Both the position numbers and the translations under genes were made by a program. 64,000 nucleotides of DNA from a phage: sequence record PZ445530.1. The stretch is one strand, 5' to 3'. The notes beneath the pieces were generated by a model that saw only the letters and a list, made by a program, of their open reading frames with translations, did no database searches and was not told the origin of the DNA. Positions 1,093 through 64,000 of this stretch are shown here, in pieces (position 1 is the stretch's first letter; each line of letters begins with the position of its first letter).

Positions 1093-3516
1093 ATGAGCAT
1101 GTGGTCGTTCGATTTTGAGTCATCCGGTTTGCTGGAAGACCCAGATCTTTATTATCACTGCGGCCTGTTTAAAGAGCTGAATAAGAACCGTTTTATGCTG
1201 TTCCTTCCTCTGAATGACCGCACACACTACTCCGAGGAGGATATAGAGAAGGCCAAGAACTTTATTCTGGCAAAGAAAACTCTTTATAAGGATTTTGAAG
1301 TTCGCATAGCAGATTTTTCGGAGTTGGAAGGTTGGCTTACAGGAAATTCCGACTGGTCACCAACAGCTTTGAACTGCCATAACTGCTACAGTTATGACTT
1401 TATGCTGATGGAGAGATTATCCGGTATTCATTTTGATATGTTCCGTGATCCTAAATGTATGGGGACTATCAACGACCACCAGGTTAACCTGTTTGATACG
1501 TTGGCGATGAGCCGAATCTTGTGGCCTGATCGCCCTTTACCAAAAGGTTGTCCGGACTCCGTATTCAACCCGGTTACTAAGAAAATGCAGCCTGTTGGTC
1601 CTCACGGCCTTATGGCATGGGGCTACGCCCTTGGTAACCAGAAAGTTCAAATTGATGATTGGCGCGATCTTCCGTTGTGGAAGTATGTGGATCGTGTATT
1701 CGAGGACGTTATCATCCAGGAGCTACTCTGGAAAGAGCTGGTAGCGGAATCAAAAGGTGTATTCTACGGCAAATCTGACATGCAGAACTTTATGTACGAT
1801 CCTGCCAAAGAGAAGCCGAAAGGGTTCAAGAAGATCACCTGGAAGAACGCATTGCGCCGGGGTATGCTGCAACACTTCCTGATGGAGCTGCAGGCCCGTC
1901 AGGGTGTGTATTTTGACATAGATGGAGCTATTGCTTTACGTGACCGTTGCGATGCGTGGATGAAAGAAATCGCTGATCGTGTTGAACCACAACTGCCTTT
2001 AAAAGAGCTGTCAATGTCTCAGCGGCCCAAGTTCCCTGAAAAGCCGTTTAACCAAGATGGGACAATCTCTAATAATGGTTGGAAATGGTTAAAAGATAAG
2101 CTTGGCTATCCTGTGGACATGAGTGCTTTAGAGTTCAAAGCCCCACCTAAGCGAGCATTTACCTCTACAGGAGATGTCAGTAAGATGGGGATAAAATGGT
2201 GTGAAGAGATGGGCTGCAAAGACCACGATAAGATGGCTGATTTCTTGAGAGGCTATATTAAGGGCACCTCCACACCACAACCTTTACCTAAAGAGCTGAT
2301 GGATCAGGCAATAAGCGATCTGCAGCAGAAGCGAATGCCTGACTGCAAGATACCTATGAAAATCAGCAATCAGGACGATATTAAGCGATACCTGATCAGT
2401 GCTGGTTGGCTTCCGACAATGTGGAGAACTAAGGATGTAACTAAAGACAGCAAGAAGAAAGCTTTACCTGATGCAGATGTTGATGCACGAGTATATGCAT
2501 ATATGGACGAGCTTTTGGAGTCAGAGTATTGTGACCTAATTATCAACTTCTGGAACAAAACTGATGCTAAGTTCCAGACAACCGTGCACAAGTTCCGAAG
2601 CTTTCCTAACTCCGAAAGGATTAAAAAGGAAGTATTCGGGAAAATACGTAGAAAAGCTAGGGCACTTATTACTTCTCCGCAACTGAAAGATACGTTTGGA
2701 CACCTGTGTCCGAATCTTGAAAAATTGAACGGAGAGATGGCTAAAGATATCGTCTTATGGTTATCATTGCGAAACCGCAGATCGGTACTTGATCCAATCA
2801 AGGAGGATAAGGTTGACACTGGTCTTCTTAATCACCCACGTTTGAAGATTGACCATAAGCTTCCTGCTAAAAGCTCTGGATTAACAAACACTTCCAGACA
2901 GAAACACAGTATTTGTGCAAACATGCCTAAACCCTCTCCTAAAGTGGTTATGGGTAAAGAGATGCGTAGCTTGTGGGGTGTTCCTCCAGGATACTTTGAG
3001 ATCGGTATCGACGGGTCCAACTTAGAGCAGCTTATCGGGGCTTGGGGTGCCTTTGAGTTCGACAACGGCCTGTATTACGATGTTGTAAGTAACGGAGACG
3101 CACACCAAAACAATGCTGAGGCATATACAAAAGTAGCAGGCAGAGAGGTGTCCCGTAACGACGGTAAACCTATCACGTATGGGGTTATGTACGGGGCACA
3201 AAAAGATAAAGTTGCAGATATGCTGGACATCTCTCCAGAGTTGGGACAAAGGGTAATCGATGCGCTTTGGGATGCCAACCCTGGTCTTAAGGGCCGTAAA
3301 GAGGATCTGGAGAAATTCTGGGAAGCAACGGGTAAGAAGTTTATCTACTCTTTTGATGGTCATGCCATCTGGACCCGATCTAAACACTCTTTACTTAATG
3401 CATACCAACAGAATGGTGGTGCATCGCTGTGTGACTTGGTTGGGATACTTATGCACCACCAAATGGTGAAGCGTGGGTGGTACGATGAAGGTGTTCGTCG
3501 TATTATCTATTACCAT
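1093..3516 (+). CDS. DNA polymerase family A, exon 1 (3'-5' exonuclease + polymerase motifs A/B)
   Basis: Exo I-like FDFESSG at N-terminus; motif A-like GIDGSNLEQL; motif B-like KPITYGVMYG; ORF stops shortly after, before motif C; SD ggagaa upstream. Confidence 0.8.
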
Positions 3517-4358
3517 AAATAACATTGTGGCTTCGTGCAGTGATGCACGTCGAAAACCTCTTTAATTGACGGGAAGGCTAAGTTGACTTTTACACCTAAA
3601 CATGGTAAAAGCTCAATATGCTAATCCGCAGCGAAGACTAAAGGGGTGTAGTTAAAATGGCTAGATCAGTTGAGTATCACGGATATACCGTGTTTGATGA
3701 TGGAACAATACCTTTATCGAAACGTGATCATACAACAATGTTTTGTTTTGATAATGGTCGAGGTTACCTTTGCGTAACCATGTTCATCGAGGGGAAGCAG
3801 TGCACAAAAGGTGTCCACCACTTGGTTGCTGAATGCTTTGTATCAAACCCTGATCCTGAAAGGCTCACATGGGTGAACCATAAGGACGGAAACAAATACA
3901 ACAATGCATACTGGAACCTTGAATGGACCACCCCTGGTGGAAATATCAAACACGCTTATGATAATGACCTCAGAGTAAGGCCAGTCGGTGAGTATAATGC
4001 CAACGCTGTACTGACCGAGGATGAGGTAACGGAGATTTGCGAACTGTTACAAAGTGGTTTACGACAATGCGAGATTAGGGATCTTGGGTATCCTTATGAG
4101 ACGGTCAGAGCCATAAAGCAAAGAAGACAGTGGAAACATATCTCTAAAAACTACACCTGGTAGTAACGTTCAGAGACTATCGAAAGCATAGCGCCAACAT
4201 AAATTGGTGCGAAGAAGCGAGTAGAGTAGACCAGCAAGTGCGGTCGAAATGGGAGGTGCCTTGGTAACAAGGTAGTGAGATAGTCCGATCCATACAGGAA
4301 ACTGTATGGCTGTGCACGTAATGGTGCGGGGTAGCTTAACGACCTACCTGAACTATTG
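3517..4358 (+). mobile_element. Group I self-splicing intron in DNA polymerase gene, carrying HNH homing endonuclease ORF
   Basis: P-like aattgacgggaagg 3564-3577, Q taatccgcagcgaag 3622-3636, R gttcagagacta 4168-4179, S gagatagtcc 4277-4286; exon 1 ends in U (3516), intron ends in G (4358); joining 3516 to 4359 restores pol motif C (YHDEYQ). Confidence 0.7.
3657..4163 (+). CDS. HNH homing endonuclease (intron-encoded)
   Basis: HNH_3-like VNHKDGNKYNNAYWNLEW motif; sits between intron Q and R elements; SD aaagggg upstream. Confidence 0.8.
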   Translation: MARSVEYHGYTVFDDGTIPLSKRDHTTMFCFDNGRGYLCVTMFIEGKQCTKGVHHLVAECFVSNPDPERLTWVNHKDGNKYNNAYWNLEWTTPGGNIKHAYDNDLRVRPVGEYNANAVLTEDEVTEICELLQSGLRQCEIRDLGYPYETVRAIKQRRQWKHISKNYTW

Positions 4359-61774: not shown

Positions 61775-61871
61775 GCTAGGTAAGCCCTTTGGCAAGGGCG
61801 AGGATTTTTAATCCTGAAAATAGACGAGGTAGTCGTTGAATACATAGGTGGTTCGATTCCATCACCTAGCA
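61775..61871 (+). ncRNA. Aberrant tRNA-like element (97 nt)
   Basis: Acceptor gctaggt/acctagc and T-arm ggtgg-ttcgatt-ccatc are canonical, but anticodon arm folds as aggat-tttta-atcct (5-nt loop) with about 30-nt extra arm. Confidence 0.3.
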
Positions 61872-61879
61872 CCTTTTTT

Positions 61880-62939: not shown

Positions 62940-63223
62940 GAGTTGCTACACTGGTTATTGTGTGCTTGTTATTATGTGGGTGTGCAACCAACGTTGAGAG
63001 AGAATACAAGATTGACCCTCCGGATGTAGGAAGGTTGATTGTTAAACCCCCGGAAGGTGCCATGAAACCACCTGCTAAAGCTATGCCTTTGAAGAAAGGT
63101 GCGCCAGATGCAGTGAATTCTGGCATTATGAGGGATAATAATCTGTCTTGTAGCAATGATAGAGCTAAATTGATCATTTTGCAAGACTATATTAGAACAC
63201 TGTTTCCAAAGGAGAGCGGTTAA
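62936..63223 (+). CDS. o-spanin (Rz1-like lipoprotein)
   Basis: Lipoprotein signal with LLLCGCA lipobox-like cysteines; Pro-rich mature part; start overlaps i-spanin stop. Confidence 0.6.
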   Translation: MRVATLVIVCLLLCGCATNVEREYKIDPPDVGRLIVKPPEGAMKPPAKAMPLKKGAPDAVNSGIMRDNNLSCSNDRAKLIILQDYIRTLFPKESG

Positions 63224-63648
63224 TGTCTAAGATTTACGGACCGTGTTCTGAAAAGCAGAAGATGATCCTCGAAAACGATGCAGATATTTTGGTAATCGGC
63301 GGTGCCGCAGGGTCTGGCAAGTCGTTCCTCTTGCAATTGATGCCACTTAAAATTATTGATGACCCCCACAGCTCTGTGGTTATGTTCCGAAGAACAACCC
63401 CGCAGTTGGAAGGTGAGGGTGGACTATGGCCTAAAGCGGTAGCTATTTATAGTGATCTGCCTGAAAACATTAAGCCAAAGTTCAGAGAGAAGGATCATAA
63501 GTTCATTTTTCCACGGTTTGATCCGAACACTGGCAAGTGGGATAGAAGCAAAAAGGGAGCTGTTGTAAAATACTGCCACATGGAGTATGTACAAGATAAG
63601 CTTAACCATCAAGGGCTTGAGTACACCATGGTTTGCTTCGATGAGGGT
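63223..63648 (+). CDS. Terminase large subunit, exon 1 (ATPase N-terminus)
   Basis: Walker A VIGGAAGSGKS; Walker B MVCFDEG at exon end; stop codon lies inside group I intron. Confidence 0.7.
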
Positions 63649-64000
63649 TAATTTGTAGCTCTCGTAAAACCTCCCTAATTGCGGGGAAATCTTTACTATT
63701 AATACCACCAACCTGTCATGGTAACATGATAGAGGCTTCGAAGAGAGATCGAAGGTATGGTAACAGTGTGTTAATTTAGATAATCCGCAGCGAAGCATCC
63801 GAGAGGATGAACGTTCAACGACTAGTCGAAAGACGTAGAATCAAGCGATTCGAAACGGGAGGATAAGCGGTTGTTGTCGCTTATAAGATATAGTCTGGTC
63901 TGCATGGAGACATGCAGCTGCCTGAAAATGGCGGGGCAAGACTAGCGACCTTGCCCGAACATAAACGACACAATTCGAATGGGAGCAGATAGACTATCTG
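63649..64000 (+). mobile_element. Group I intron interrupting terminase large subunit (3' end beyond window)
   Basis: P aattgcggggaaa 63677-63689, Q taatccgcagcgaag 63781-63795 (identical 15-mer to pol intron), R gttcaacgacta 63813-63824, S aagatatagtc 63885-63895; no long ORF inside. Confidence 0.65.

Follow-up and report, generated by a model that had tools for sequence, protein, structure and literature searches.

A predicted group I intron in the large terminase gene of a Vequintavirus coliphage, its polymorphism among related phages and its kinship with an intron in the polymerase gene

Close to the 3′ end of the window, as the whole stretch of phage DNA analyzed here (64,000 nucleotides) is called below, a reading frame for the large terminase subunit breaks off after 142 codons, directly behind a Walker B-type motif, and the question is whether the gene truly ends there or is interrupted. 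The original prediction that this frame runs to MVCFDEG and a TAA stop codon at 63649-63651 is borne out by the ORF at 63223-63651 (142 aa; this and all other features described are on the plus strand unless stated otherwise). The 142 codons themselves (63223-63648, taken from the ORF list and from their uninterrupted counterpart in intron-less phages) encode GAAGSGKS, a Walker A motif, and the Walker B-type MVCFDE, after which comes Gly142. Over its last kilobase the window shows 100% identity to Escherichia phages slur16 and slur12 (genus Vequintavirus), and 98-99.8% identity to other phages of this genus, namely rV5, LL12 and several from the BASEL collection; judged by these matches, the gene belongs to an rV5-like coliphage of the genus Vequintavirus and is its large terminase gene (terL). 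The window is nevertheless no base-for-base copy of slur16, given an offset shift upstream of 63000, nor of slur12, which lacks the polymerase intron described below.

When the whole window is searched with the Rfam models, Intron_gpI (RF00028) matches at 63639-63917 over its full length (model positions 1-253) and without truncation, with a score of 84.3 bits (E 5.5e-20; the gathering score is 50). The minimum free energy (MFE) of the region is -115.2 kcal/mol (z = -5.25 relative to dinucleotide shuffles). The ends of the intron were set by alleles that lack it, and delimit an ORF-less, IA2-like element of 319 nt (63649-63967). In the intron-less Vequintavirus phages (BP9, ECP2303, FV3 and others) terL is a single CDS of 1548 nt, and a tblastn search with the spliced terL N-terminus recovers BP9 (100%) and ECP2303 (99.7%), each as one contiguous piece. 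Nucleotide alignment to the intron-less gene puts the junction at GGY|ACN in a single possible register, and the predicted exon junction equals the contiguous gene of the intron-less sister phages base for base, which establishes its exact position at the level of sequence comparison.

The 5′ splice site is marked by the P1 hairpin (63641-63665; Rfam alignment and MFE fold), in which 63641-63650 pairs with the internal guide at 63656-63665 through ten canonical pairs out of ten, and in which the wobble pair U63648·G63658 places the site directly 3′ of U63648. Exon 1 therefore closes on a whole Gly codon (GGU), and the first three bases of the intron, UAA, provide the in-frame stop for the exon 1 frame. 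At the opposite end, the 3′ tail of the intron comprises 11 nt and closes with the omega-G, the terminal guanosine at 63967, which is identified as the last intron base by the junction in the intron-less alleles. A P10 helix is possible and would consist of just 3 bp (63654-56 with 63968-70). One element of the original prediction, namely that exon 2 lies beyond the window, has to be revised, as G63967 closes the intron and 63968 is the first base of exon 2, whose initial 33 nt (63968-64000; 11 codons, TQFEWEQIDYL) lie inside the window.

Because most of exon 2 falls outside the window, its sequence was borrowed from slur16, to which the last 1001 nt of the window are identical; in slur16 and JohannBauhin, exon 2 stays open for 1089 nt past the window end. 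Excision of 63649-63967 restores an ORF of 1548 nt, encoding a 515-aa terminase, in which Pfam Terminase_6N (E 6.2e-20) spans residues 25-294 and thereby bridges the junction at residues 142/143, while Terminase_6C, the nuclease domain, spans residues 394-489. Extended downstream via slur16, the gene thus reaches an in-frame nuclease domain through a canonical splice, as an intron at this position would lead one to expect. A comparison of the spliced terminase with PDB sequences gave no match at E <= 0.01, and the designation ‘Walker B’ is for this reason based on the hhhhDE pattern and the Pfam Terminase_6N assignment. Taken together, the RF00028 match, the 515-aa reconstruction and the junctions in the intron-less sisters uphold the earlier proposal that a group I intron splits terL after Walker B, and 63649-63967 is very probably a functional group I intron whose splicing would produce a single terminase.

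The elements of the ribozyme core are all in place, and P, Q, R and S do begin at 63677, 63781, 63813 and 63885, where they had been predicted. P2 is absent. The 5′ strand of P3 (63670-63675, CCUCCC) pairs with GGGAGG at 63857-63862, and the P element AAUUGCGGGG (63677-63686; Rfam) contains the 5′ strand of the core helix P4 (63679-63685; P4 in full, 63679-85/63784-90). A long arm, comprising P5 and P5a/b/c (63689-63781), is drawn from the MFE fold, with P5 at 63689-92/63778-81, P5a at 63698-705/63768-75, P5b at 63713-20/63725-32 and P5c at 63736-41/63749-54. The Q element UAAUCCGCAGCGAAG, together with P6/P6a, occupies 63781-63814 and includes the 3′ strand of P4 (63784-63790) and a hairpin (63796-800/63805-809), and is followed by the R element GUUCAACGACUA (63813-63824; Rfam alignment). 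P7 (63820-63824/63891-63895), formed by GACUA and UAGUC, is a pseudoknot and is consequently missing from the MFE fold; plain MFE folding mispairs the R region, and P7 and the guanosine-binding site were taken from the Rfam alignment and read by eye.

Downstream of R, two small hairpins with exclusively canonical pairs, P7.1 (63825-63834, GUC-GAAA-GAC) and P7.2 (63838-63851, GAAUC-AAGC-GAUUC), make up an insertion relative to the Rfam consensus (63825-63851). They precede a short P8 hairpin of 22 nt (63863-63884, AUAAGCG...CGCUUAU), the S element AAGAUAUAGUC (63885-63895), which supplies J8/7 and the 3′ strand of P7, and a P9 region (63900-63956) composed of P9 (63900-06/63911-17; Rfam alignment and MFE fold), P9.1 (63920-22/63930-32) and P9.2 (63934-40/63950-56). 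All pairs are canonical in P1, P3-P6, P7.1, P7.2, P8 and P9-P9.2. Insertions of the P7.1/P7.2 kind are typical of subgroup IA, and by resemblance only, on the strength of P7.1/P7.2, the extended P9 and blastn matches to the td and nrdB introns of T4, the terL intron may be assigned to the IA2 type. Across all frames of the 319 nt, the longest open stretch amounts to 64 codons and lies on the minus strand, in keeping with the earlier remark that there is no room for a homing endonuclease.

Given this architecture, P1 would arise in the pre-mRNA when the internal guide (63656-63665) pairs with the end of exon 1, and an external guanosine would attack 3′ of U63648 in the U·G wobble. The released exon 1 would then attack 3′ of the terminal G63967, ligating ...FDEG to TQFEWEQ... 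and generating an mRNA for one 515-aa terminase with both ATPase and nuclease. Translation of unspliced RNA would be halted at the UAA made by the first three bases of the intron. We infer that this splicing takes place in infected cells; a search of the literature found no published RT-PCR or in vitro splicing experiment for this intron.

Natural variation bears on the same point. The predicted structure was examined across eleven intron copies, taken from related phages and 96-100% identical, with the endonuclease insert found in P8 of some relatives masked in the alignment. Substitutions among them lie in peripheral helices and loops, with none in P, Q, R or S, and the core helices P3, P4 and P7 are invariant among the approximately 10 distinct close variants. 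Full compensatory changes are seen in three pairs (63700/63773, U-A to C-G; 63702/63771, A-U to G-C; 63717/63728, C-G to U-A), the last of which also shows a U·G intermediate among the natural variants. One-sided changes preserve pairing in a further six pairs and three pairs are broken, counts that derive from a shallow sample of some 10 close variants. Within the limits of this sample, which is too small for statistics, the natural variants support the view that the RNA structure of the terL intron is under selection.

These changes count against the principal rival to splicing, in which the 142-aa N-terminal ATPase and a separate C-terminal polypeptide would be made independently and assemble after translation. 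Such an arrangement has a precedent in the split NrdA of Aeromonas phage Aeh1, which consists of two polypeptides assembling post-translationally. The first terL ORF does have a clean stop, and several GenBank and RefSeq records list two ‘terminase large subunit’ CDSs; the RefSeq record of slur16 (NC_028248; locus L001, 3224-3652 and 4074-5090) is one of these, and HMD-6, Pr121LW, JEP1 and SophiaRose are annotated in the same manner. Endonuclease-associated inserts that do not splice are also known (PMC7344957). However, the entire ribozyme core is present and scores well over the Rfam threshold, and both the pair-preserving and the compensatory changes are suggestive of selection on RNA structure. 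In addition, a second CDS must start 35 codons into exon 2, as it does in the slur16 record, where the splice was missed and conserved residues were lost, although these residues are contiguous with the remainder of the protein in every intron-less homologue. The exons are, moreover, joined in curated annotations. A split terminase is accordingly very improbable.

Harder still to credit is a decaying, catalytically dead relic, which would either depend on a host or phage factor or inactivate terL in this isolate. It is true that the window copy has lost, or never had, a homing endonuclease, and it is at the ORF-less stage of the homing cycle that introns are expected to degenerate. Against this, terL is essential and the phages in question form plaques and have been sequenced, while in 23 independent records the ORF-less intron has been retained, 96-100% identical and with its core elements unchanged, and the Rfam score is high and the match untruncated. 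A mere chance resemblance to a group I intron is rejected outright (E 5.5e-20).

With a spliced intron as the preferred reading, its distribution can be considered. The terL junction region was found in 119 GenBank records of phages, of which 66 have no intron, 23 the intron alone and 30 the intron together with an endonuclease gene, which establishes the existence of three states at this site. The ORF-less form measures 318-320 nt in its 23 records and the endonuclease form 882-883 nt in the other 30. In the latter, P8 accommodates a 591-nt gene for a 196-aa protein of the Endonuclease_7 family (E 2e-21). This ORF begins 5 nt past GGGAGG, the P3′ strand, which at the same time serves as its Shine-Dalgarno sequence, and its stop codon UAG is the UAG of the 3′ strand of P7. 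Since the ORF shares its ribosome-binding site with P3′ and its stop with P7, translation and ribozyme folding must compete. The P8 stem of DrSchubert (locus L003, 1109-1991) reads GUGAAUGUG...CACAUUCAU, compared with AUAAGCG...CGCUUAU in the window, and as the stems differ no simple deletion separates the two forms. In Gotham (L016) the terL intron has 882 rather than 883 nt, being one A short in a run of A residues close to where the endonuclease ORF begins, and the annotated ORF has 570 rather than 591 nt; this looks like an endonuclease gene that is beginning to decay.

The exon flanks differ with the state of the site. All ten intron-bearing alleles that were sampled have GGT| at -1, followed in nine by |ACA CAA, whereas the ten intron-less alleles sampled uniformly read GGC|ACG, so that synonymous differences at -1, +3 and +6 go with the presence of the intron. 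A scan of IMG/VR for a degenerate pattern of the intron-less junction returned 2 contigs, in agreement with the GenBank alleles. The U at -1 and the flanking differences would fit a requirement for the U·G pair together with co-conversion during homing; alternatively, the flanking differences could represent variation in the target site.

As read from these alleles, the terL site is a classic mobile-intron polymorphism, with states of intron gain, ORF loss and intron loss. The intron is present or absent at the same site among close relatives, and the flanks bear a signature of the kind left by co-conversion; endonuclease-driven homing is the likely means by which it spread. The window copy, with no ORF, has no homing endonuclease. 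Because 30 related records carry the Endonuclease_7 ORF, the lineage is mobile and the window copy is not autonomous, and as its sisters have either the endonuclease form or no intron at all, it constitutes one state of the polymorphism. Also found in the GenBank records was a set of approximately 18 sequences labeled ‘Campylobacter phage’ (MG0656xx; host given as C. jejuni) that match E. coli Vequintavirus phages with 97-100% identity throughout terL and its intron; the C. jejuni host label of these records looks doubtful.

A second intron in the window interrupts the DNA polymerase gene (3517-4358; 842 nt). A permissive Rfam scan matches it to Intron_gpI at 3507-4308 with 39.1 bits (E 1.1e-7), the score falling under the gathering score because of a 510-nt insert in P6, and an ORF in this insert (3657-4163) has a weak match to HNH_3. 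The predicted junction reads ...IIYYH|DEYQL, and the polymerase of slur12, which has no intron, is contiguous across it at 99.5% identity. This site is likewise polymorphic, slur12 being intron-less and SYGMH1 carrying an ORF-less form of 328 nt; in YP-6 and D1 the intron seems to measure about 276 nt.

The original prediction had noted a 15-mer in the Q region, identical in the two introns, and taken it as a sign that they are related. The sequence, TAATCCGCAGCGAAG, does have exactly two occurrences in the window (3622 and 63781), against a chance expectation of 0.10 even when 2 mismatches are permitted, and two matches occurred in none of 100 dinucleotide shuffles. As 11 of its 15 bases are those of the Rfam family consensus, however, the 15-mer by itself is weak evidence of kinship. 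The proposed relationship is better carried by the whole cores, which are about 80% identical at aligned positions once the insert is removed and align with a score of 148, compared with 64.6 ± 9.8 for shuffles, and by an exact 37-nt block, TAATCCGCAGCGAAGCATCCGAGAGGATGAACGTTCA, spanning P4′-P6-P7, which the ORF-less polymerase intron of SYGMH1 has in common with the terL intron (63781-63817). Among 26 loci compared, this 37-mer is confined to terL or polymerase introns of Vequintavirus, and an IMG/VR scan found it in 2 contigs. These similarities support the conclusion that the terL and polymerase introns are related, as originally suggested.

The two introns are also alike in their IA2-like architecture and in splitting a region with a catalytic motif (H|DE in the polymerase, DEG| in terL). 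They differ in host gene and internal guide, and the polymerase intron, unlike the terL intron, has a P2; its P5 arm is also shorter and its P7.2 longer. Their endonucleases differ as well, that of the polymerase intron being HNH_3-like and situated in P6, and that of the terL intron in relatives being of the Endonuclease VII type and situated in P8. It is conceivable in view of the exact 37-nt block, and we propose it tentatively, at rather less than even likelihood, that the Vequintavirus terL and polymerase introns are recent paralogues that still swap core segments within one genome, that they have been invaded independently by different endonuclease families in different loops, and that each exists in all three homing stages across about 120 phages. 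No paper describing paralogy of these introns with core exchange was found in the literature. If true, the pair would offer a handy natural system for the study of ectopic intron transposition and modular endonuclease invasion.

With respect to annotation, records of rV5-like phages often list terL as two genes, an error that exact splice coordinates would correct. With respect to biology, the locus adds another phage group I intron in the catalytic-motif region of a gene for an essential enzyme, and the 66/23/30 split among near-identical phages provides a textbook snapshot of the homing cycle. Mildly new are the exact 37-nt block common to both introns and the fact that the terL and polymerase sites each show a clean three-state polymorphism. 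Phages of this group find use in phage-therapy and biocontrol collections, and the intron changes nothing that is known about them. A separate annotation matter concerns a 99-nt tRNA-like gene within a tRNA cluster at 61775-61873 (plus strand), which ARAGORN reports as ‘tRNA-???’ with a four-base anticodon (atcc) and which scores just 35.5 bits against the Rfam tRNA model. It is unnamed in the slur16 record and annotated in that of LL12 as tRNA-Lys with ‘inconsistent isotype’, and may represent either an atypical tRNA of long-arm or frameshift type or a degenerate one.

The terL intron of Vequintavirus is itself already published and annotated. The description of rV5 devotes a section to the subject, ‘Introns in terminase’, and acknowledges D. 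Shub for help in working out the position of the intron (Kropinski et al. 2013, PMC3606486), and the announcement of LL12 states that its large terminase and DNA polymerase genes are both disrupted by predicted introns (2019, PMC6658697). In the LL12 record, terL is labeled an ‘intron-containing gene’ and the intron appears as a gap in the joined CDS; the BASEL records of JohannBauhin and DrSchubert give terL as a two-piece join, and that of rV5 (NC_011041) as a three-piece join, ORF64ABC. The first terL intron of rV5 occupies the same site as that in the window, has the same length of 319 nt and is 97.2% identical to it. Unlike the window genome, rV5 has, further downstream, a second terL intron that encodes an HNH_3 plus HTH endonuclease (locus L007, 4906-5601) and leaves the CDS in 3 pieces; the window genome contains the first intron only, given that its terL after splicing has the same 1548 nt as the intron-less alleles. 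In JEP1, SophiaRose and phiWec193 the CDS that follows the first terL intron has just 291 nt, which points to a second interruption of the rV5 type. The 883-nt intron of DrSchubert (MZ501060) shares with the window both the site and the core (98-99% identity outside P8), and differs in P8, where a 196-aa Endonuclease_7-family ORF takes the place of the 22-nt hairpin.

Beyond Vequintavirus, group I introns are also present in the large terminase genes of Lactobacillus phage LL-H and Pectobacterium phage CB7, which are unrelated or distant phages. In CB7, a Certrevirus, the terL and polymerase introns were shown by RT-PCR to splice (PMC7344957), although the terL insertion site, in a phage of another genus, probably differs from that of Vequintavirus. 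Outside Vequintavirus, the nearest match to the terL intron core was observed in the phiKZ-like Pseudomonas phage fnug (L011, 1405-1741; 72% identity over 187 nt, E 4e-19), where it falls between homologues of PHIKZ071 and PHIKZ073 in a stretch that bears no annotation; located as it is between two ORFs of a jumbo phage, this match is probably an unannotated, ORF-less group I intron.

The classic self-splicing phage introns of subgroup IA2 are those of T4 td and nrdB. Blastn aligns the 3′ core of the terL intron with td at 82% over nt 238-316 and with nrdB at about 73% over nt 162-270. Like the terL intron, both possess P7.1 and P7.2, interrupt a conserved enzyme gene and have an in-frame stop near their 5′ end; they differ from it in host gene, in the peripheral helices and in their endonucleases, which are of the GIY-YIG or HNH families (I-TevI, I-TevIII).
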